A DNA stretch of 64,000 nucleotides from Phapecoctavirus DIJ07P2, in sequence record OZ035771.1; one strand, given 5' to 3'. The notes beneath the pieces are model-generated. The model saw only the letters and a program-made list of their open reading frames with translations. It did not search any database and was not told the DNA's origin. The translations under genes were made by a program, and so were the position numbers. Position 1 is the stretch's first letter; each line of letters begins with the position of its first letter. This document shows, piece after piece, positions 4,574 to 35,189 of this stretch.

Positions 4574-7204
4574 TTAACGATCCTCTCTGATTTGATTAAT
4601 CTTACGAGCAAGGGCAGCTATAAGCTTATCTTCTTCAGATACAGGAGCCGTGCTCTTACCTAAACGATGCATGTCTAAAATCTCTTGAACAGTTCGGTTC
4701 CATTGCAGACATTTAATACAACGTGTATGTGCAACATACAGAAGATTTCGTTCTGATTCTTCAAGACCTACCCACTCACCCTTCTTATCGTAATTAGAAG
4801 GGAAGTCATTTGCAACAATAACCTGATCCCATTCCAAACCTTTTGATTTGTGGGCTGTAGTTAAAGTAACTTTAGCCGTTGGAGAGTTACGGTGCATACG
4901 TAAAGTGTATGCAATATTATTAGCTTTACCAGAAACAACAATGTTTAAAAGTCGTTTTGCATCAGGATCTGATTCTGCACACTCTACAAATTCTTCCCAA
5001 GAAGTGTAAGGTAGAACTGTCTCATGCTTAACTTTGTCCAAATCACCTCTACGTAAAGCATTAACACTATCAACCATAGAAATGAAATCTTTGGTATCTA
5101 CGTTAATAATAATCTCTTCTCCGTTAGCGATTCGATCCATTGCCTCCATAAGCAAGGTTAAATTCTTGCGAAAGATGATAGTGTAAGGTTTTGTATAGTC
5201 TACAACATCTGATTTGTAGCTACCTACTACAGTATCAAAGCCTTTACCAACCAAAGGATGACGCAAAGGTTCTTTATCGCTTAAAATCATATTGGCAATG
5301 TTTGCCACTTTGGGGCCAAAACGGAAGCAAGCAGTTAATGGAAGCTCTGCCCCATACTTAGCTGTTTCAATCATCATATTAGAGCTACCTCTAAATTGAT
5401 AAATGCAGTTGTGGCTAAGAATTTCATTGCCAAAGAAGTTAGCAGTATCCTCTACTTCAATATCATAATAGATACCCTCACTATCTACAATGTCCACAAT
5501 CTCTTCTGCCGTTACAGTATCACCATCTTTTACCAACACAGACATGCCTTTAAACAAACCCGCTGCCGGAATTAAGTTATATTTGGCAGTGTCTACAGAG
5601 GACATGCATTCTTTTAAAGATGCAAACGGAACTATTTCAAGGATCTTTTGTGCAAAACTCAATGCTTCACAATAAGAATTGAAATATTTACGTACACGGT
5701 AACGACCTTCCAATTTAGCAACACTTACGCTTACACCTGCTTTAATGAGTGAAGCATAGATCGGCATTTCACTTTCTGTCCACTCAAAACTGACTTGTGT
5801 TCCTTTACAACCTTGTGCTCGCAAAGTCACTGTTAACATTTTTCTTTCATCTACTGCACAATTGATGCTGTGCCAATGTGGATAAGCAAAATGATAGTCT
5901 TTATCCTCTAAAAGTTTAAAACCATTCTGTCCGAATTGTTCAAAGATGTTATTGATCCTTTCTTGATTAATGCCGCGTGAACTTGCTTCAAATACACAAG
6001 TAGGAATGCCATATTGTAAACTGTATGCCATTTCTTTTTCCATAGCAGCTTCGCGATTTTCAACAATGTCCAACACCCATAATTTCTGTGCTTTTTCAGA
6101 ACGTGTACGTTGCCCCAGTTTAGAAAAACCTTCTTTATCATCGAATTTGTTAGTGATCCCTACTCGGAAACCTAAATCTTTCCTCCACATTAGGTATACC
6201 ACCATCTGGTCATCTTTCAGAACATAAGATGAAGCCCAAATACGATGGTTATGTGTCATATCTAAAGTTTTACCTGTAGCAGTAATAATATTCCTACCTT
6301 TTGTACGTGTAGATAAAGTCTTATTTGTTACTTTTCTAAATGTAACTTTACCATTAGAATAAGACTCTACCTTATCACCGATTTGCAGGTCTTTCATTGT
6401 AACCTGACCATTCTCGGTGTTAAGTACCGTGTTTTCCGACACACATTGAAATTCATCACCCACAACAACAATACGTTTAGCCGATTTAGCATTACGAAGG
6501 ATAGACAGGAATGCAGGGTTAACATCCTGGAATTCATCTCCAAAAATAATATCGTATCCTAAATCTTCTTTGCTCAATTCAAAGAGTTTCACATAGGTGT
6601 CATGAGTCATAATGGTTTCTGATTTAGGATCAATACGCTCACGCCAAAGTTGCTTCGCATATTTAACAACTTCGTTAATAAGTTTTTGTTCGTTGATGTT
6701 TTTACGTTTTAGGTCTGACATGTGCACTTTAGGAAAATGTTTATGTCCGATATGTTCATCGTCAGAAAACTCATATTTAGCTAAAGTTTGTTTTACCATT
6801 AACCCGATCATTGCACGAGTCAGTAGCACTTTACCATTCTTATCGATCAAGTTCTGAATCTTAAATTTCTTGGCAATCTCACTACCAGTTCCAGCTACGT
6901 TAACATATTGACCTTCTGGACGAGATAATTTGTGTCGAAGGTTTTGTGGAAGACGCTGGTAACAGATAGAATGTAGCGTTCGGCACATAACATTGGGCGG
7001 CATTTTACGTCGAGCTTCCTCTGCCATACTTTTGTTAAATGCCAAATATAGAATACTATCATTTGTGCCATTAGCCAACATATACAGTGTTGACGTTTTA
7101 CCTGATCCAGATTTAGCTTGAATTGTAACGAAACGATTTTCTTTATACCCGCTTTCAATAGCGTATTGTTCATCAGTAGGTGTAAAACTCAATTGTGTAG
7201 ACAC
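4574..7204 (-). CDS. SF1 (UvrD/PcrA-like) DNA helicase containing an intein
   Basis: Walker A AKSGSGKTS, motif II IFGDEFQD, motif III VVVGDEFQ|CIYQFRGS split by insertion, C-terminal TAHKSKGLEW and VAHTRC motifs. Confidence 0.85.
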   Translation of the reverse strand: MSTQLSFTPTDEQYAIESGYKENRFVTIQAKSGSGKTSTLYMLANGTNDSILYLAFNKSMAEEARRKMPPNVMCRTLHSICYQRLPQNLRHKLSRPEGQYVNVAGTGSEIAKKFKIQNLIDKNGKVLLTRAMIGLMVKQTLAKYEFSDDEHIGHKHFPKVHMSDLKRKNINEQKLINEVVKYAKQLWRERIDPKSETIMTHDTYVKLFELSKEDLGYDIIFGDEFQDVNPAFLSILRNAKSAKRIVVVGDEFQCVSENTVLNTENGQVTMKDLQIGDKVESYSNGKVTFRKVTNKTLSTRTKGRNIITATGKTLDMTHNHRIWASSYVLKDDQMVVYLMWRKDLGFRVGITNKFDDKEGFSKLGQRTRSEKAQKLWVLDIVENREAAMEKEMAYSLQYGIPTCVFEASSRGINQERINNIFEQFGQNGFKLLEDKDYHFAYPHWHSINCAVDERKMLTVTLRAQGCKGTQVSFEWTESEMPIYASLIKAGVSVSVAKLEGRYRVRKYFNSYCEALSFAQKILEIVPFASLKECMSSVDTAKYNLIPAAGLFKGMSVLVKDGDTVTAEEIVDIVDSEGIYYDIEVEDTANFFGNEILSHNCIYQFRGSSNMMIETAKYGAELPLTACFRFGPKVANIANMILSDKEPLRHPLVGKGFDTVVGSYKSDVVDYTKPYTIIFRKNLTLLMEAMDRIANGEEIIINVDTKDFISMVDSVNALRRGDLDKVKHETVLPYTSWEEFVECAESDPDAKRLLNIVVSGKANNIAYTLRMHRNSPTAKVTLTTAHKSKGLEWDQVIVANDFPSNYDKKGEWVGLEESERNLLYVAHTRCIKCLQWNRTVQEILDMHRLGKSTAPVSEEDKLIAALARKINQIREDR
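5408..6445 (-). mobile_element. Intein (346 aa) within helicase motif III
   Basis: Starts CVSENTVLNTENGQVTMKDLQIGDKV (block A), has TLDMTHNHRIW (block B), ends YDIEVEDTANFFGNEILSHN followed by extein Cys; codon checks at 6443-6445 (Cys) and 5408-5410 (Asn). Confidence 0.8.
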
Positions 7205-27937: not shown

Positions 27938-27952
27938 TCGACAACAAAACAA

Positions 27953-27979
27953 GGGGCGCACAAAGCGCCCTTTCTTTTT
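27953..27979 (+). terminator. Intrinsic terminator (GGGCGC-ACAAA-GCGCCC + TTTCTTTTT)
   Basis: GC stem plus T-tract after stop at 27937. Confidence 0.65.
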
Positions 27980-27989
27980 GCCCGAACAA

Positions 27990-28900
27990 TGTTGATAGCT
28001 TTCGCCTATGAAAAACCGACACAGAACAAAACTGAATAAATCGCGGTATCGAGCTAATCAACCAGCAAACGAATAACCATACCTCCCAGGGTTACAGGCT
28101 GTTAGAGAGCCATTTAGAGCGGTTAAAATCGATCAACAACCAACAACAAACCATCAAAAACACCCTTTTACCTCCTTTCTAGTGCAATGATAACCATTAT
28201 CATCTACCCATGATTATCTATGCAATATAAGCGCATAATTATAATGTTGATAATAGTTCGCAACAACTAACCAACAAACAACATAAAACAATAAGCAAAC
28301 TAATCATAATCAAAGGAATAATAGCAAGATGATTGATAACGACAAACAATCGAACCATGATGAATACTAAGCAAGATAACGATAACACGACAAAACAACC
28401 AACTAACGAACAATAACAAACGAAACCATTAAAATAATAACTATTAGCAAAATAGTGCCTGAATGAAATCATTACAAAACGAATCATTCACAGAGTCATC
28501 ATTAGCACGCTATGCCGGACACATAGCGAGCTAATAATAAGCCAACTACACCCCAACAATCATAACCATCGGTGACGGTTATTTCTTGTTACTGCGTAGC
28601 TTGCAATAATTGCAAGCGTAATGACGCTTACACTTATTGCGCTGGCTTATTATTAGCATTATATGTAATTACCAAGATCATAACATTAGCGCAATAACAA
28701 TAGTCATTGTAATAATTACATGAGTTATCACTATCGTTCAGTGTGATCATCATTAGCACAGTGAATAATTGCACGTAGCAACATGAGCGAATAGCGACAG
28801 GTTGCATAGTGTGCACATAGTGTATAAACATACAAGAAAATAAAGGCTAATCTTTTGGGGGCGAATACTATCGCGTAGCGATATGTTGAGCACCTTCTCT
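27990..28900. other. Non-coding region with strong A+C strand skew, GATAA-type hexamers and palindromes
   Basis: Plus strand dominated by A/C (e.g. CAACAACCAACAACAAACCATCAAAAACACC); palindromes TGATAACCATTATCA (28188-28202) and CTTGCAATAATTGCAAG (28600-28616); no convincing ORF. Confidence 0.5.
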
Positions 28901-28962
28901 TAAACGTAAATAAAATCAGAAAATTCTTGATTTATTTTAGTTTTTATGTTAATAAACGTTTA

Positions 28963-28980
28963 AATAATAATCATTCTCAT
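28963..28980. promoter_or_regulatory. Fur-box-like operator candidate (AATAATAATCATTCTCAT) followed by TATAAATA
   Basis: Shares ATCATTCTCAT core with 18694 site. Confidence 0.35.
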
Positions 28981-29140
28981 ATAAATAATAGTCTGCTTGT
29001 CATGAGCGGGATTAGTTGACAATGTTCCGTCATATGATGAAGTTGCCAAGCCATTGATAAATAAGTGTTTGTGTGATTTATAATCAGGTGGCCCACCTTG
29101 TCGCTATGTTGGCATGAGCCTTGCATAAGTCATTGAATAC

Positions 29141-29161
29141 GAATGATAATTATTCTCATTC
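29141..29161. promoter_or_regulatory. Fur-box-like palindromic operator candidate (GAATGATAATTATTCTCATTC)
   Basis: Near-palindrome; matches Fur consensus at most positions by eye. Confidence 0.4.
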
Positions 29162-29501
29162 GCATGATATTTGGGAATTGTCGCTGCGTGGACCTGACGG
29201 CCCGAAAATTCGCGTTAAGCACTTCTTACGTATACGCCATGATTTTTGCCATATGATATTGATTCTATTAGATATTCTTGCCATTATTGCCATGAAACAT
29301 GGTGTCCCGAAATAATCTCTCCCCGTAGATATTTTGGGTTACTTTTTATACAAGAGTGGGGTGTCAAAAATAATCAGTATATATGGGATAATTGATAGGA
29401 ATCCCCTATGATAATTCGATTGTAATTCCCTAAGATTGATCGTATGATGTTGGTGATTGATGATTGCCATGAAAGATGGCTAACGATGAGAGGAGATTGT
29501 C

Positions 29502-29876
29502 ATGCAAGAGAGTAAAAATGTTCCGTTGAGTAGTGCAACATTGCTTCGCTTCTATAAAGCATGGATTGCCAACTATCCTGCAATGAATCGCACAACGAGT
29601 GGCTTATGTGGTTGTCTGGTAGATTATGTAAATGATTTTGTTGGTGAGACAACTAGAGAAGAAGATAGAAGATGGCGGGATAGTTTGTTGGACCGTTTGA
29701 AATATGAAATGAGGAAACAATTTACATGTGCAGGGCTGGACTATAATCTTCCGTTCAATGCAGATTGCATGGATTACCTTTCAGAGTGTATAAACTTGGC
29801 GTGTCATACCAACACGTTACGTCTTCAGTGGGTGAAAGACAGAATTGAAGATGCAAATAATGCTTGCATTGAATAA
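29502..29876 (+). CDS. Hypothetical protein, paralog family member A (124 aa)
   Basis: GAGGAG RBS; shares GLCGCL, LPFN and RLQWVKDRI motifs with ORFs at 33354 and 34659. Confidence 0.55.
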   Translation: MQESKNVPLSSATLLRFYKAWIANYPAMNRTTSGLCGCLVDYVNDFVGETTREEDRRWRDSLLDRLKYEMRKQFTCAGLDYNLPFNADCMDYLSECINLACHTNTLRLQWVKDRIEDANNACIE

Positions 29877-29925
29877 AGATGTTTGTATAATGGATGACAT
29901 AACAGATAGCCAATGAGGAGATGAA

Positions 29926-30135
29926 ATGAAGAATTTGAAAACTGTCACAATGTTCTTGACTAATCCTACACGTGTGCAAGCACTGGCTAAAGCCAGCCGT
30001 GTAGCTGTAGAATTCCAAAACTTTAAGCCGTCCGTTGTGACAGGCAGTGAAACGTGTGTTATCGATTTCATTAACGAATACTTCCGAGGGAATCCGGTTG
30101 GTCGTTACTTTATTAAGGGTCTGAAGGATGCATAA
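29926..30135 (+). CDS. Hypothetical protein (69 aa)
   Basis: ORF with GAGGAG RBS. Confidence 0.5.
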   Translation: MKNLKTVTMFLTNPTRVQALAKASRVAVEFQNFKPSVVTGSETCVIDFINEYFRGNPVGRYFIKGLKDA

Positions 30136-30358
30136 CATGAAACGCATGAAAATTCGTATTGAGAATGATGGTGGTTATAAAGGATTGGCACATGCAAAAT
30201 TTCCACTTGTGTTGGAAGCTACGGTGGAATACAGTGGGCTTGCTCATGTGCGATTCTCGAAGATGATGGAAGTGCAGGAATGGTTTTGGGACGAGATAGA
30301 TGCACGAGAAGGAGAAGATTATGTTTTCTTTCCTCACGAATATAACATTGTCTATTAA
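30128..30358 (+). CDS. Hypothetical protein (76 aa)
   Basis: Overlapping-coupled ORF. Confidence 0.5.
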   Translation: MHNMKRMKIRIENDGGYKGLAHAKFPLVLEATVEYSGLAHVRFSKMMEVQEWFWDEIDAREGEDYVFFPHEYNIVY

Positions 30359-30370
30359 AGGTTGTGTGCA

Positions 30371-30610
30371 ATGATCACACCACAACAGAATGAAGCAGCA
30401 ATGGATCTTCTTGATAGTTTGTATTTCGATAATTGGTACTCTGAATGTGAATGGATGAATATGCAAACTCTGAAAGAGAAGACAAAAGCGTTGATTACAG
30501 TAGATCAATTTCTTGCAGAGACGGAAAGAATGAATTATGATATGGCATCTCGCGCACGACGCGTTTCCATTTTCAATAAAATGTTAGCATTATGGGGAGG
30601 TAGAAAATGA
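30371..30610 (+). CDS. Hypothetical protein (79 aa)
   Basis: Start at ATG (MITPQQ). Confidence 0.5.
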   Translation: MITPQQNEAAMDLLDSLYFDNWYSECEWMNMQTLKEKTKALITVDQFLAETERMNYDMASRARRVSIFNKMLALWGGRK

Positions 30611-30834
30611 GACAATTCACTATACTGGAAGCACATGTGCAATGTGTTGCAGATTATGTCAAAGAACATTCAAGTTTGTTGGATGTAACCTGTGCAGTGC
30701 AAAATGATGTAGGTATTGTCTGTGTGCAACATATCCTATCTGAAACTCGTTACGAAGTATTCCGTGCTACCTTGTTTGGATGTGATCGTGTGAACTGGGT
30801 AAAAGAACGTGTAGCAGAAGAAATAATTGGTTGA
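30607..30834 (+). CDS. Hypothetical protein (75 aa)
   Basis: ATGA-coupled ORF. Confidence 0.5.
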   Translation: MRQFTILEAHVQCVADYVKEHSSLLDVTCAVQNDVGIVCVQHILSETRYEVFRATLFGCDRVNWVKERVAEEIIG

Positions 30835-30859
30835 CAGAAGGATCTGTCTTTGTCATAAT
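30831..30859 (+). promoter_or_regulatory. Sigma70-type promoter (TTGACA, 17 nt, CATAAT)
   Basis: Precedes ORF at 30889. Confidence 0.45.
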
Positions 30860-30888
30860 CATCTCATCGAAACAGAGAGGAGAAAATC

Positions 30889-31302
30889 ATGAAAAAGTTT
30901 ATTTGCACCCGTTCCACTAACAGTGATATCCTTGTAGGTAAGGTTATCAAAGGAGAACTCTTCCATGCAAACGGTAAGAAATATATTCTGCTGAAAGATT
31001 CTTTCAACGGGGAATATCCGCGCTGCACTTTCTTCAATTACAACACTCCATTTGCTTTAGAAGGAGATGCTTGGGAATGGGCTGAACTCAATCCTTGTTG
31101 TGAGGAAGAAGAATCTATGTTCTTAGGTTTAAACGTTTACCGTGTAGATTACACCATGTGCGGAGCGGAACATTCTGTTCGCGTAGAAGCCGAATCCAAA
31201 CTACAAGCACCTTTCAAGGCAGGATTGACTTTGGGTCATTGTTTGGCAAACATTGAAGATGTTGTGATCCAAAGAGTTGTTTTAGAGAAAGAGGCTATTT
31301 GA
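30889..31302 (+). CDS. Hypothetical protein (137 aa)
   Basis: GAGAGGAG RBS. Confidence 0.55.
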   Translation: MKKFICTRSTNSDILVGKVIKGELFHANGKKYILLKDSFNGEYPRCTFFNYNTPFALEGDAWEWAELNPCCEEEESMFLGLNVYRVDYTMCGAEHSVRVEAESKLQAPFKAGLTLGHCLANIEDVVIQRVVLEKEAI

Positions 31303-31327
31303 CAGAAGACGGTACAATATTTAAAAT
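31299..31327 (+). promoter_or_regulatory. Sigma70-type promoter (TTGACA, 17 nt, TAAAAT)
   Basis: Precedes ORF at 31357. Confidence 0.45.
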
Positions 31328-31356
31328 ATAAAGATTAACCACAAAAGGAGAGAAAC

Positions 31357-31656
31357 ATGCAAGTTGAAGACCTGATCAAGATTCTGAATAAAGCCAAAGA
31401 GAAGGGTGCTATCAAAGACTGGAAACGTGAAACAAGTGAAGATTTATCTCATTGTTGTCGAGAATTTTACATTGAAGGTATTGCTAACGATCATTATACT
31501 ATTGAATGGTATATTAACTTAATGACTCTTAAACACGGTTCATTTGAGGTTTGGTTTGATGACATTGATGTAAATGGTTTTCATCCTGGCTATAAAATCG
31601 CTATGCAGTTATCTTATCGTAGAGAAGTTGTAGCACATTTGGGTTTACATAACTAA
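31357..31656 (+). CDS. Hypothetical protein (99 aa)
   Basis: AAGGAGAG RBS. Confidence 0.55.
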   Translation: MQVEDLIKILNKAKEKGAIKDWKRETSEDLSHCCREFYIEGIANDHYTIEWYINLMTLKHGSFEVWFDDIDVNGFHPGYKIAMQLSYRREVVAHLGLHN

Positions 31657-31666
31657 GGAGAAAAGA

Positions 31667-31990
31667 ATGCAAGCAGTTGTTAACGAAGCTATTATGAACT
31701 TATCCTTCTTGTTAGCTGGTTTAGGAGGTGTTCTCATAGGTTTGGCTCTTATCTGGTGTATTCGTCGATTAATCGGGTACCGACAAAAAGGTGTTTCATG
31801 TTTTGTATCTTACAATTTTACAACTGCTTACAGCAATGAGGTTGGATCTGGTAATGCTCAAGCATTTTTACCAACATATCCTCCTACGGTGGAGGATATT
31901 CGAAACTTGGAAGTAGAACTTATGGGACTAAGTGATAACTATACATCTCTCGTTATTCAAAATATTTTTCGACTAAAACAGGAGGCGTGA
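31667..31990 (+). CDS. Membrane protein (107 aa)
   Basis: TM segment LSFLLAGLGGVLIGLALIWCI. Confidence 0.5.
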   Translation: MQAVVNEAIMNLSFLLAGLGGVLIGLALIWCIRRLIGYRQKGVSCFVSYNFTTAYSNEVGSGNAQAFLPTYPPTVEDIRNLEVELMGLSDNYTSLVIQNIFRLKQEA

Positions 31991-32203
31991 ATGAAGGCAC
32001 ATTACCCTCATCCCTTTGATCCTAAAAACAAAGCCGTAATTCTTCGTCAGTGGCAACGGGTTTGTCGTACTAAATGTCCAATTAATAGCCAACACAATGT
32101 GGACAAGGATTATCTTGGGACATTTGTTGAATACACTTACATAGACAAAAACAAGCGTAAACAACATGTCGAGGAATACTGCTTAAAAGTAGAATGGCTG
32201 TAA
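31991..32203 (+). CDS. Hypothetical protein (70 aa)
   Basis: ORF coupled to upstream gene. Confidence 0.5.
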   Translation: MKAHYPHPFDPKNKAVILRQWQRVCRTKCPINSQHNVDKDYLGTFVEYTYIDKNKRKQHVEEYCLKVEWL

Positions 32204-32215
32204 ATAATAAATACC

Positions 32216-32244
32216 TTGACAAGTGTTTATTCGTTTTGTAAAGT
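32216..32244 (+). promoter_or_regulatory. Sigma70-type promoter (TTGACA, 17 nt, TAAAGT)
   Basis: Precedes the recombinase gene. Confidence 0.45.
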
Positions 32245-32273
32245 GAGAATACAGCAATGGTTTAGGAGTGGTT

Positions 32274-32945
32274 ATGAAAAAGTTTGTTGTTTACAGTCGT
32301 CTTTCTAAACAGAAAAAAGGTGAGGCACAATATGGTATGGAGAGCCAAGAGAACGATATCCGTTACTTCTTAGACTCTGTGCCTGATGCTGAAGTTATTG
32401 GTCAATTTTCTGAATACTATTCGGGTAAGGGCGATTGGAAGCAACGTAAGGAACTGGTTAAAGCGGTTGAAATGTGTAAAGCTACCGGAGCAACTTTATT
32501 GGTAGCTAAAGTTGACCGCTTGGGTCGTAACAACGCATCCGTAGCAACTCTTCTAGAAATGATTGATGTTAAGATAGCCATCATGCCAGACGCAGATAAA
32601 ATGGTTATACAGCTTCTGTCTGTTCTGGCTGAACAAGAAGTTAGAGGTATTGCTGATCGTATTAAAAAGGGTCTTGCTGTAGCAAAAAGCAAAGGTGTTT
32701 TATTAGGCAGTGCTAATCCTAAAACTGCTGCTGCACGTAGAAAAGGAAAAATGGAATACAATTCTGTTAAAGCAGACGCTTTTGCAGAGACATTTCGTGA
32801 ACGCTTGGAGATCCTTAGAGATTTAAATACACCTTACAAAACTATTGCTGAAAAATTCAATAGTAAGAAAATAGCAACAGCACGTGGTGGTAAATGGGAT
32901 GCTAAAACTGTTTCTCGTTTGTGTGCCAGACTTAACATTAAATAG
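32274..32945 (+). CDS. Serine recombinase (resolvase/invertase family)
   Basis: YSRLS N-terminal motif, LVAKVDRLGRN, AEQEVRGIADRIKKGLAVAKSKG match resolvase catalytic-domain motifs as recalled; C-terminal HTH-like region. Confidence 0.65.
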   Translation: MKKFVVYSRLSKQKKGEAQYGMESQENDIRYFLDSVPDAEVIGQFSEYYSGKGDWKQRKELVKAVEMCKATGATLLVAKVDRLGRNNASVATLLEMIDVKIAIMPDADKMVIQLLSVLAEQEVRGIADRIKKGLAVAKSKGVLLGSANPKTAAARRKGKMEYNSVKADAFAETFRERLEILRDLNTPYKTIAEKFNSKKIATARGGKWDAKTVSRLCARLNIK

Positions 32946-32953
32946 GAGAGGAT

Positions 32954-33376
32954 ATGAAACAAGAAAATGAATCTGTAGATCACTTAATCATGCTGTCAGC
33001 CCTTTTTGCCGGATGGGACGTATTTTTTGAAAATTTATTCAATTCTGCTACAGATGGTTCCGATTTTATGCGGCAGTTTAAACGACGAACTGTTGAGGAC
33101 TATGCTTTCTATTCAGGTCGGATTGAAAAAGGTTACGAAGATACAAATACAACACTCACCATTAAAGTTTTAGATGTGATGTTTAGTGTTATAGATGCTA
33201 TCGACGAAAGTCTTCCGATCCTAGACAATTGTAATACGAAAGCCTATGTTTACAAAATAGCTCGTGCTTATGTGTCTGCAAACAGTTGTCTTCTTTCCAC
33301 CCAGATTGCCGTGAACAATCTTGCCAACTTGTTTGACGAAGGAGAAACTTTTTATGACAATCGATTTGAAGTGTAA
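32954..33376 (+). CDS. Hypothetical protein (140 aa)
   Basis: ORF with GGAGAGG RBS. Confidence 0.5.
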   Translation: MKQENESVDHLIMLSALFAGWDVFFENLFNSATDGSDFMRQFKRRTVEDYAFYSGRIEKGYEDTNTTLTIKVLDVMFSVIDAIDESLPILDNCNTKAYVYKIARAYVSANSCLLSTQIAVNNLANLFDEGETFYDNRFEV

Positions 33377-33719
33377 GAGGATTCTTTTAGATTTCTATAA
33401 TAATTGGTTAGAACACCTCCGTCTCTTTCCAAGAGAAAGTGGTTACGCTGATGTTGGCTTATGCCGAGGTCTGCGTATGTATATAAGTGATGAATTTCGG
33501 GCCGAGCATTCTTTAGCATATTCTGTTTATGGTATGCAATTAGCCAGTTTTGAAAACGCTGGCTTAGATACAACTTTCCCATTTAACACAGCAAAATCTT
33601 TTGAGCAAGAGTGTAAGGAAAAACGTTGCATGTTTAATGAAAAACGTGTACAGTGGGTTAAGGATCGAGTTAAACAACTGGAACAAGAGTTGGATTTCTT
33701 TTATGACGAGGCAGAATAA
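33354..33719 (+). CDS. Hypothetical protein, paralog family member B (121 aa)
   Basis: Start at MTIDLK after AAGGAG; contains GLCRGL, GLDTTFPFN, RVQWVKDRV. Confidence 0.5.
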   Translation: MTIDLKCKRILLDFYNNWLEHLRLFPRESGYADVGLCRGLRMYISDEFRAEHSLAYSVYGMQLASFENAGLDTTFPFNTAKSFEQECKEKRCMFNEKRVQWVKDRVKQLEQELDFFYDEAE

Positions 33720-33991
33720 TGGATAGACAAACCTTAAAAACAATGGCAGATGCTACTAATTCCCCGTACTTTGAAAAAGTAAGTAAATTGGTAGTTCAAG
33801 CCGCAGAGGAAGGATATTATAACATAAACATCCACAACCCAAATCTTATACTAGAAATGCCAAGTGATAAGAAGATACAAGAGAGTATCTGTGAAGGTAT
33901 TGTTAGTTACTGGCGCGAGCGTGGGTGTGGTGCAAACATGGCTTTAGACAGTGCAAACATTGTAAGATATATAAATATTTCTTGGGGATGA
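33719..33991 (+). CDS. Hypothetical protein (90 aa)
   Basis: TAATG-coupled ORF. Confidence 0.5.
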   Translation: MDRQTLKTMADATNSPYFEKVSKLVVQAAEEGYYNINIHNPNLILEMPSDKKIQESICEGIVSYWRERGCGANMALDSANIVRYINISWG

Positions 33992-33995
33992 TTTT

Positions 33996-34607
33996 ATGAT
34001 TCAATGCACTCATATCCAAATTACTTGGAGAGATGAACTTTACCATTTGGGACAATTTACTGTAGGGGAAACATACCTTGTCATTAAACATAATCCTAAC
34101 ATCGCAAACTTTGACAGGATGGTTCTTGTTGAGGACGATCTAGGTCAAACTTATTCTTTAGATCTAAAATATCCGTTTTCTTACGGCTACGATTGGATCG
34201 TTACTTTTGAAGACGTGGAGGAAAATAAAACAATGAACGAAAAAAATTCTTGGTATTATCGTTGTGAACTGCCGCCAGTAGGTGAAAAGGTTATCTTTGT
34301 TCCTGATTTGGAAAGATATTCTTGGGACAGTTCTTATTCTGTTCCTAAAGAAGGCACCGAAGTTGAAGTTATTGCACATCGCACAACTTCGCATGGTAAC
34401 GATGTAGCAGTTGTTTTCTGGGATGATGAAGGCGCTGCTTGTGCAGGTGGCTTTGTTGCAGGTAATTTTGAACCGCTGCCAGATCCTTTGAAGGAGGCAA
34501 TTTTAGGCGTAGCTTCTTTTGGACTCTCTTACACATCTGCACAAGAGATCGTAGAAGGTATTTTAAACGGTACCGTTCCAAACGAAATTTTTAAACAGAT
34601 TAAATAA
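33996..34607 (+). CDS. Hypothetical protein (203 aa)
   Basis: ORF followed by terminator. Confidence 0.55.
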   Translation: MIQCTHIQITWRDELYHLGQFTVGETYLVIKHNPNIANFDRMVLVEDDLGQTYSLDLKYPFSYGYDWIVTFEDVEENKTMNEKNSWYYRCELPPVGEKVIFVPDLERYSWDSSYSVPKEGTEVEVIAHRTTSHGNDVAVVFWDDEGAACAGGFVAGNFEPLPDPLKEAILGVASFGLSYTSAQEIVEGILNGTVPNEIFKQIK

Positions 34608-34612
34608 TAGTT

Positions 34613-34637
34613 GCACCCCGTTCTGCGGGGTGTTATT
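34613..34637 (+). terminator. Intrinsic terminator (CACCCCG-TTCT-GCGGGGTG + T-rich)
   Basis: Hairpin immediately after stop at 34607. Confidence 0.55.
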
Positions 34638-34658
34638 GTATACGTAAAGGAGGCGCTA

Positions 34659-35019
34659 ATGTATTACACTGAAGACTACATATTGTATAACTTTTTTAAA
34701 GGCTGGTTGAAATGGGCTGAACAAGCTCCTGTCGGAGATTGTGTTTTTCCTTGGGATTCTCGTCAAGGTTTGTGTCGTTGTTTGGAAGATTGGCTTATAA
34801 CCACAAACTACAACTCAGAAACTAAGAAATCTACATCACAGAGACTAAAAAATGTTATTTGAAGAAGATGGTTTAGATCCGATTTATCCTTTCGGTGAGG
34901 AAAGTTTCCACAATGGTCTTTTCCTTGGCACTCAACATTATGATAAAGATCGTGTAGATTGGGTAAAAGAAAAGGTAGCACAGTATGAATGGGGGTTAAG
35001 AATTATCACCGCTGGTTAG
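34659..35019 (+). pseudogene. Paralog family member C with +1 frameshift (possible pseudogene, programmed shift or sequence error)
   Basis: Frame 0 encodes ...GLCRCLEDW... to stop at 34862; +1 frame from 34861 encodes GLDPIYPFG...DRVDWVKEKV, the conserved C-terminal half; A6 run near junction. Confidence 0.45.
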
Positions 35020-35189
35020 AAAGCTATCTTAAGAAATGCGAACTTGGTGTTCCAGGTTATACTTACGACACGGACGAGATTCTTGATGAAATGGAAGTTT
35101 GGTTTAAAGAGCCTCGTGAACTATTGGCAAATATTCTAATGGCTTGGGATGGTACGGCACAAAGCATCGAAGGAGGTAGAAATGAGTAA
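34989..35189 (+). CDS. Hypothetical protein (66 aa)
   Basis: ORF overlapping the end of the frameshifted paralog. Confidence 0.45.
   Translation: MGVKNYHRWLESYLKKCELGVPGYTYDTDEILDEMEVWFKEPRELLANILMAWDGTAQSIEGGRNE

Follow-up and report, generated by a model that had tools for sequence, protein, structure and literature searches.

A probable strain-specific frameshift allele of a widespread small early-gene family in Phapecoctavirus DIJ07P2

Copy C of a three-copy paralogous gene set in Phapecoctavirus DIJ07P2 is probably an ordinary strain-specific frameshift allele, most likely null, of a widespread family of small phage early genes. The 64,000-nt stretch of sequence record OZ035771.1 that was analysed (the window) comes from a Phapecoctavirus-type (phAPEC8-like) E. 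coli myophage, and its family copies A, B and C sit in the early block of small genes. In the scenario that we favour, copy C would have been struck by a single-base insertion turning A5 into A6 at 34847-34852, with slipped-strand mispairing in replication, of which this is the usual outcome, as the presumed source. Translation from the ATG at 34659 would then stop after 67 residues, within predicted helix 3 of a five-helix bundle. Because the break falls inside this predicted helix, the A6 allele is most likely null; re-initiation at the native Met65 codon may at most yield the C-terminal 55 residues at a low level. The event would be recent and limited to one phage genome, and the loss of copy C is probably tolerated, as the family is redundant and its copy number varies between relatives. 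Among the options named in a preliminary description of the locus (pseudogene, programmed frameshift or sequencing error), comparative data favour the pseudogene, arising from a strain-specific, very recent +1 insertion in an A5 run.

Three paralogs and the remnant of a fourth copy

Re-reading of the window ORFs returned the starts at 29502, 33354 and 34659 and their frames as previously described. The features discussed here are the following (window coordinates).

29502..29876, + strand: paralog A, intact, 124 aa; ortholog of nepoznato gp142; phrog_2510 / pVOG VOG7392
30775..30834, + strand: fourth-paralog relic comprising the final 13-17 codons (ending in DRVNWVKERVAEEIIG and a stop) of an EF1-1 gp37-like copy
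33354..33719, + strand: paralog B, intact, 121 aa; ortholog of nepoznato gp173
34613..34633, + strand: terminator-like GC hairpin, located after the upstream 203-aa gene and before paralog C
34659..34862, + strand: N-terminal ORF of paralog C, 64 native residues, then NVI, then TGA; 67 aa
34847..34852, + strand: frameshift site, an A6 run that is A5 in all relatives examined
34852..35019, + strand: C-terminal ORF of paralog C in the +1 frame, 55 aa; its first codon is native Met65
34989..35189, + strand: downstream 66-aa gene, start moved to the second ATG of ATGAATG
34991..34995, + strand: G5 run; G4 in most relatives, G5 in AV125

By sequence, the three ORFs are true paralogs, diverged to 23-32% identity and homologous far above chance. 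BLASTP aligned A with B at 32% identity (E 9e-10), B with C at 31% (E 3e-7) and A with C at 23% (E 0.01), and all three match phrog_2510 (E 1.9e-25 for A, 2.2e-26 for B, and 2.4e-27 for C after repair of its frame); the homology proposed earlier thus held in alignment. Against the family HMM, A and B scored E 1.2e-42 and 1.7e-41, respectively, and the halves of C matched separately (E 1.7e-21 for the N-terminal and 2.5e-18 for the C-terminal one); when the six-frame translation of the window was searched with this HMM, the A, B and C ORFs were the only full-copy matches. All three motifs described as shared are present in A, B and C, respectively: GLCGCL, GLCRGL and GLCRCL; GLDYNLPF, GLDTTFPF and GLDPIYPF; and, closing the proteins, RLQWVKDR, RVQWVKDR and RVDWVKEK. 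The second motif had been written as GLDxx(F/L)PF, a pattern that does not cover copy C, which has Y there. Paralogs A and B each form a single compact one-ORF domain of ~100-125 aa, unlike the split copy C.

The preliminary description counted three family members, which is an undercount: besides three full copies the window has a relic, and the number in relatives is 3-6. The relic forms the end of a chimeric ORF (30607..30834), in which the N-terminal 61 aa of a phrog_14944 gene (E 1.4e-34 against phrog_14944) are fused to it in frame; the relic itself matches the family HMM weakly (E 0.0012). A BLASTN parent switch, with nepoznato aligning up to 30792 and EF1-1 from 30775, places the deletion junction within 30775-30792. 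Other disrupted family members are on record (P0016, P0018, P0019, and P0027). The range of 3-6 copies, the deletion relics, the recurrent broken alleles, and fused double and triple versions elsewhere also form the context of an adaptive reading of the frameshift, considered below.

The broken copy and its intact orthologs

As its sequence reads, copy C of the window is a disrupted family member. It starts at ATG 34659, preceded by the ribosome-binding site AAAGGAGG, breaks frame at residue 64/65 and ends at the TGA at 34860-34862. It had been noted that a +1 shift near an A6 run is needed to read the conserved C-terminal half of this copy, and this proved correct, the run being at 34847-34852. 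The 55-aa ORF that encodes this half overlaps the upstream stop by 11 nt and aligns with copy B at 38% identity over 45 aa (BLASTP); once both frames are joined, the conserved GLC, PF and RxxWV residues are all present. Further downstream, the G5 run swaps the paralog C stop for a 7-aa extension, LRIITAG; in AV125, G5 is present and the paralog C CDS is intact at 119 aa. Because of G5, the start of the downstream gene is shifted, and the N-terminus of the 66-aa protein changes from MNGVKNY... to MGVKNY.... Only 144 nt separate the A6 and G5 insertions, and the record is otherwise clean, a pattern that a local low-coverage or polishing artefact may fit. The hairpin at 34613..34633 has a counterpart in phage Schickermooser that carries a putative-terminator annotation; beyond this hairpin, nothing relevant emerged when the surroundings of the locus were scanned for Rfam families, tRNAs, promoters/terminators and repeats.

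In all 64 related genomes, the locus reads as A5 with one intact 112-aa gene. Its span is 447-449 nt in 64/64 phage records vs 450 nt in the window, none of the 64 records is identical to the window across the A run, and the best matches differ by a 1-nt gap; in an eight-sequence alignment, A5 was found in 7/7 relatives and A6 in the window alone. Relatives annotate a single 339-nt CDS (112 aa) here. Once one A is removed, the product of the window's copy C agrees with the EF1-1 and Ro121c4YLVW orthologs at all of their 112 residues (100% identity), and the DNA differs at a single synonymous position. The pN/pS ratio among copy C orthologs is 0.03-0.2, and the intact forms are, on this comparative measure, under purifying selection. 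Intact 112-aa forms are recorded in hundreds of contigs (e.g., 177, 83, and 30), while the 67-aa and 55-aa fragments are recorded for one genome only, in two assemblies. The locus was not matched in complete genomes of E. coli, and exact and degenerate A6 patterns had no match in IMG/VR, metagenome contigs or GTDB genomes, the A5 control being also unmatched in IMG/VR, which leaves these pattern scans uninformative.

Alternative explanations of the frameshift

We regard a real, very recent slipped-strand mutation as the likely origin of the A6 allele, a sequencing or assembly error being less so. The latter is unlikely: the phage would truly have A5 (and perhaps G4), the extra bases being homopolymer miscalls in the deposited sequence. 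Both departures from the relatives are +1 changes of homopolymer length, the classic type of error, close to each other (144 nt) in a gene otherwise identical to its intact orthologs, and similar isolated frameshifts are found in deposited relatives, namely in EF1-1, where A6 stands for the A7 of the window at 34240 and shifts the frame of the 203-aa gene, and in BI-EHEC, where copy B is frameshifted. The Logan de Bruijn assembly of run ERR12949680 shows the A6 allele unchanged (143-kb contig; a literature search on this run accession found nothing), and the same sequence from a separate k-mer-based assembler argues for accurate, consistent reads, although this contig and the 144,811 bp NCBI record probably share reads or sample, and a platform-specific miscall is possible. 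Moreover, a comparison of 59 kb with relatives gave just two isolated 1-nt indels (34847 and 34991) that fall within ORFs and set the window apart from every relative covering the position; the other five window-specific ones are intergenic, and no other gene is broken despite 341 homopolymer runs of at least 5 bases and 73 of at least 6. As G5 was found independently in AV125 with an intact gene, at least the G5 change is a natural allele. The error option of the preliminary description is therefore weakened by the presence of the allele in a second assembly and by the absence of any other gene-breaking homopolymer indel in 59 kb.

If the A6 run is real, copy C might still yield a full-length protein by programmed recoding, either through +1 ribosomal frameshifting on CUA-AAA-AAU or through RNA polymerase slippage dropping one A. 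On such a run tRNA-Lys could slip from one AAA (34848-50) and pair with the next (34849-51), placing the ribosome in the +1 frame, where the conserved half is encoded; the frames share just 15 nt (34848-34862). However, the site is not conserved: since all 64 relatives have A5 and are read through in one frame, the programmed frameshift suggested earlier is rejected as extremely improbable. The fragments come from one genome only, the site ACAGAGACUAAAAAAUGUUAUUUGA lacks an upstream SD-like stimulator, and AAU, which occupies the A site in the 0 frame, is not a stop and not rare either. Bacterial RNA polymerase slips efficiently only on runs of roughly 8-9 bases or longer, and the A6 run falls short of this. 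It is also very unlikely that copy C has become a functional split gene whose two halves are both translated (the second through termination-reinitiation at ATG 34852) and then reassemble or act separately. The C-terminal ORF does begin exactly at the native Met65 codon, with the upstream stop 8 nt downstream of that ATG, a geometry compatible with translational coupling, and the C-terminal half bears no further damage, but this absence of decay is equally explained by recency. Moreover, the break falls within predicted helix 3 of a compact bundle, no ribosome-binding site is recognisable ahead of ATG 34852, and no relative has a split version of copy C. Finally, the frameshift could be an adaptive loss of function, an early protein sensed by host defence or costly on the isolation host being discarded via a mutable A run; we consider this highly improbable. 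Were it true, the multi-copy family would represent a host-takeover or anti-defence arsenal under arms-race selection.

The family in other phages and comparison with known systems

In an alignment of 23 sequences (A, B, the intact C ortholog, and 20 homologs), F12, G37-L38-C39, F67, P77-F78, R98, and W101-V102 are invariant. The predicted structure of the intact C ortholog P0010 (pLDDT 93.3) is a five-helix bundle with helices at 5-22, 38-48, 53-69, 80-89, and 96-111; GLC marks the start of helix 2, PF lies in the loop before helix 4, RxxWV is in helix 5, and the 64/65 break maps inside helix 3. The model had no informative structural match, Pfam, NCBIfam and PADLOC gave no meaningful match for the family, and a profile search of PDB sequences returned nothing below E 0.37. 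A catalytic Cys-His-Asn triad was considered and dropped, as the His position is not conserved in the alignment.

The family comprises 2061 representative clusters, N4 gp3 included, and its longer homologs (up to 441 aa) have added domains belonging only to other PHROG families of unknown function. Phage N4 gp3 (YP_950481.1, 104 aa) matches the family profile at E 1e-20 and lies in the early gene set gp1-gp14, directly behind gp1 and gp2. N4 gp8, a replication inhibitor, was rejected as the family homolog, being a different protein of 71 aa. An N4-like contig has family members in its early block, and a Mu-like prophage carries the family beside GemA and Mor; canonical Mu has no family homolog. 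In podovirus JG068, the family member is gp5 (PMC3765740). Judging from their location in early regions, the family members may be small accessory proteins that act on the host early in infection.

The broken copy C itself is of little importance, being a strain-specific allele of a hypothetical accessory gene, and 34659..35019 would be better annotated as a frameshifted pseudogene instead of a gene pair. Of modest wider value is the assignment of the three ORFs to a large, uncharacterised family of early phage proteins, for which there is a confident five-helix model; this family is common and variable enough in copy number to merit functional study.

The closest known counterparts are the Phapecoctavirus phrog_2510 / VOG7392 proteins (phAPEC8 AFU62629.1; nepoznato gp142, gp152, gp164, gp173, and gp176), direct orthologs of A, B and C with 94-99% DNA identity and matching motifs, size and early-block position; the window differs in that its copy C has A6 instead of A5 and is split. 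N4 gp3 shares the GLC...LPF...RxxW motifs and the early-region location but is a distant homolog, single-copy in N4; no published function was found for it, and no mechanism can be transferred from it to the window copies. The gene prfB (release factor 2) resembles copy C in that a +1 shift is needed for the downstream conserved part and the frames overlap briefly. In prfB, a conserved CUU-UGA shift site with an in-frame stop is accompanied by an upstream Shine-Dalgarno-like stimulator, and the shift is required in every ortholog, whereas copy C has neither signal and its orthologs are in frame. Copy C fits best with the homopolymer frameshift pseudogenes of phage accessory genes, in which a one-base length change in a short A run cuts short a non-core gene of a single isolate and the gene is intact in relatives, and for which the EF1-1 203-aa gene and copy B of BI-EHEC provide parallels among the relatives; the only unusual point here is the independently recurring G4/G5 variant at the stop-start overlap of copy C.

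The phrog_2510 genes and their surroundings

Three ORFs of the window, copies A, B and C, match the PHROG family phrog_2510 (E 1e-25 to 1e-27, copy C being scored with one A deleted), and they lie where the preliminary description had placed three paralogs.

phrog_2510-related features of the window
29502..29876: copy A, 124 aa
33354..33719: copy B, 121 aa
ATG 34659 to TGA 34860-34862: first ORF of copy C, 67 codons, preceded by the ribosome-binding site AAAGGAGG
34847-34852: A6 run, frameshift site of copy C
34849 (frame open), ATG 34852, to TAG 35017-35019: +1 frame of copy C, with GLDPIYPF and RVDWVKEK motifs
30607..30834: chimeric ORF, in frame, with a phrog_14944 N-terminus and the C-terminus of a phrog_2510 paralog

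Their homology, upheld by these matches, was also recovered by pairwise BLASTP (identity 32% for A-B, 31% for B-C, 23% for A-C) and by a family HMM, which, run against the window translated in all six frames, matched these ORFs only and the halves of copy C separately. As initially described, copy C needs a +1 shift at the A6 run, the half with both motifs sitting in the +1 frame. The three described members are thus homologous, but the family is larger, as 30607..30834 holds a relic of a fourth copy. Residues 1-61 of this chimera correspond to the N-terminus of a phrog_14944 protein (153 aa in phage nepoznato, gp146), and its last 13-17 residues (...DRVNWVKERVAEEIIG) to the C-terminus of a paralog resembling EF1-1 gp37, a fourth phrog_2510 copy. 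The junction (30775-30792), an 18-nt stretch common to both parents, marks where about 6 kb has been deleted compared with nepoznato.

Phapecoctavirus phages of Escherichia, among them phAPEC8, ESCO13, Ro121c4YLVW, nepoznato, nieznany and EF1-1, are 95-99% identical to the window. The 29.5-35 kb region is part of a rightward block of numerous small genes, most of them without annotation, interspersed with sigma-70-like promoters and hairpins. Directly upstream of copy A, about 1.5 kb (approximately 27940-29500) lack credible ORFs; this stretch is 96-98% conserved and carries no annotation in Ro121c4YLVW, nepoznato or nieznany either, and scans of it for Rfam families, tRNAs and notable repeats found none. 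An origin, a regulatory region or an ncRNA are candidate roles. A gene for a Gin-like serine recombinase (DNA invertase) lies mid-block, between copies A and B (32268-32945).

Copy C in related phages

Alignment of 34611-35060 to seven relatives revealed two window-specific single-base differences: A6 in the window versus A5 (34847-34852), and G5 versus G4 (34991-34995). The locus spans 450 nt in the window, compared with 447-449 nt in all 64 phage records containing it. Those departures from 448 nt that were examined trace to other changes: G5 in AV125, an additional G within the hairpin that precedes the gene in the SA_NWU phages (of which 3A1 was aligned), and the absence of one G from the ribosome-binding site in Schickermooser. 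A 71-nt query over the A run found no identical record, the best matches being exactly one gap away.

The G4/G5 polymorphism (34985-34999, ATGAATGGGG(G)TTAA) falls where the stop of copy C and the start of the following gene overlap. With G4, copy C ends at TAA and the downstream gene begins MNGVKNY; with G5 (the window and AV125), the first gene is extended by 7 aa, and the second can begin at the second ATG (MGVKNY). Both genes stay open in either state.

In relatives, a single 339-nt gene is annotated at this locus. Intact forms of 112 aa are found on hundreds of contigs in the protein collection, the 67-aa and 55-aa fragments in one genome only. With one A removed, copy C is 100% identical to its orthologs in EF1-1 and Ro121c4YLVW across their 112 residues, its DNA differing by one synonymous change. 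This identity, together with pN/pS of 0.03-0.2 among the orthologs, indicates that the gene is functional and constrained in relatives, and that the lesion in the window would be very young.

Origin and consequence of the extra base

The preliminary description left a choice between a pseudogene, a programmed frameshift and an error. Programmed frameshifting was rejected, as the relatives are intact and require no shift; the shift site ACAGAGACUAAAAAAUGUUAUUUGA has no Shine-Dalgarno-like stimulator and no slow or stop codon. A run of six As is too short for bacterial RNA polymerase to slip efficiently. Re-initiation by terminating ribosomes at ATG 34852 is a weaker possibility, supported by geometry only: this ATG is the native Met65 codon, and the new stop follows 8 nt downstream.

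Proteins identical to the two fragments are recorded twice, in a 144,811-bp NCBI record that is presumably the window's source and in the Logan assembly of run ERR12949680; the 6.2-kb loci taken from the Logan contig match the window exactly and include both indels. The two were probably built from shared reads, which leaves room for a miscall. However, the record shows no general tendency to homopolymer error: although the window has 341 runs of at least 5 bases (73 of at least 6), a survey of isolated indels with clean flanks (59 kb, four relatives) found seven 1-nt indels unlike every covering relative, five of them intergenic (7741, 21056, 23281, 27439, 62314) and only two within ORFs (34847 and 34991). 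Moreover, G5 is a natural allele, because AV125 carries it in a diverged background with an intact 119-aa gene. Given the second assembly, the clean record and AV125, the extra A is probably a genuine insertion through slipped-strand mispairing, and a miscall is possible but less likely; a recent pseudogene is the best-supported reading of copy C.

The intact ortholog of copy C (P0010), modelled with a 23-sequence alignment, gave a confident five-helix bundle (pLDDT 93.3, pTM 0.87; helices 5-22, 38-48, 53-69, 80-89, 96-111). The frame break at residue 64/65 falls within helix 3, and the first fragment lacks the invariant P-F and R-x-x-W-V residues. Copy C would most likely be a null allele.

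A parallel homopolymer frameshift was seen in EF1-1, which has A6 versus A7 in the window and three other relatives (34240-34246), splitting a 203-aa gene (33996..34607) into two annotated CDSs (6222-6832 of the EF1-1 locus).

The wider family

Copy C is best read as an ordinary frameshift allele confined to one strain, in a family already catalogued but uncharacterised. Ro121c4YLVW has six copies, nepoznato five and nieznany at least three; the range among close relatives is 3 to 6. Other disrupted members are known (P0016, P0018, P0019, P0027), P0016 being copy B of BI-EHEC with a frameshifted C-terminus. Searching 1.84 billion representative proteins with a profile yielded 2061 clusters at E <=0.001 (1180 at <=1e-10), mostly of about 100-110 aa. 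Some family proteins are tandem two-domain or three-domain fusions (P0045, P0046, P0052), and some are fused to other PHROG families of unknown function.

Canonical Mu has no family homolog; a Mu-like prophage carries a family gene between a gp11-like gene and GemA. Podovirus JG068 gp5 is a family member (PMC3765740), as is N4 gp3, and an N4-like metagenomic contig has two adjacent copies in its early block (L012 5622-6312). The location in early regions, which is consistent among members, suggests a small accessory protein that would act on the host early in infection.
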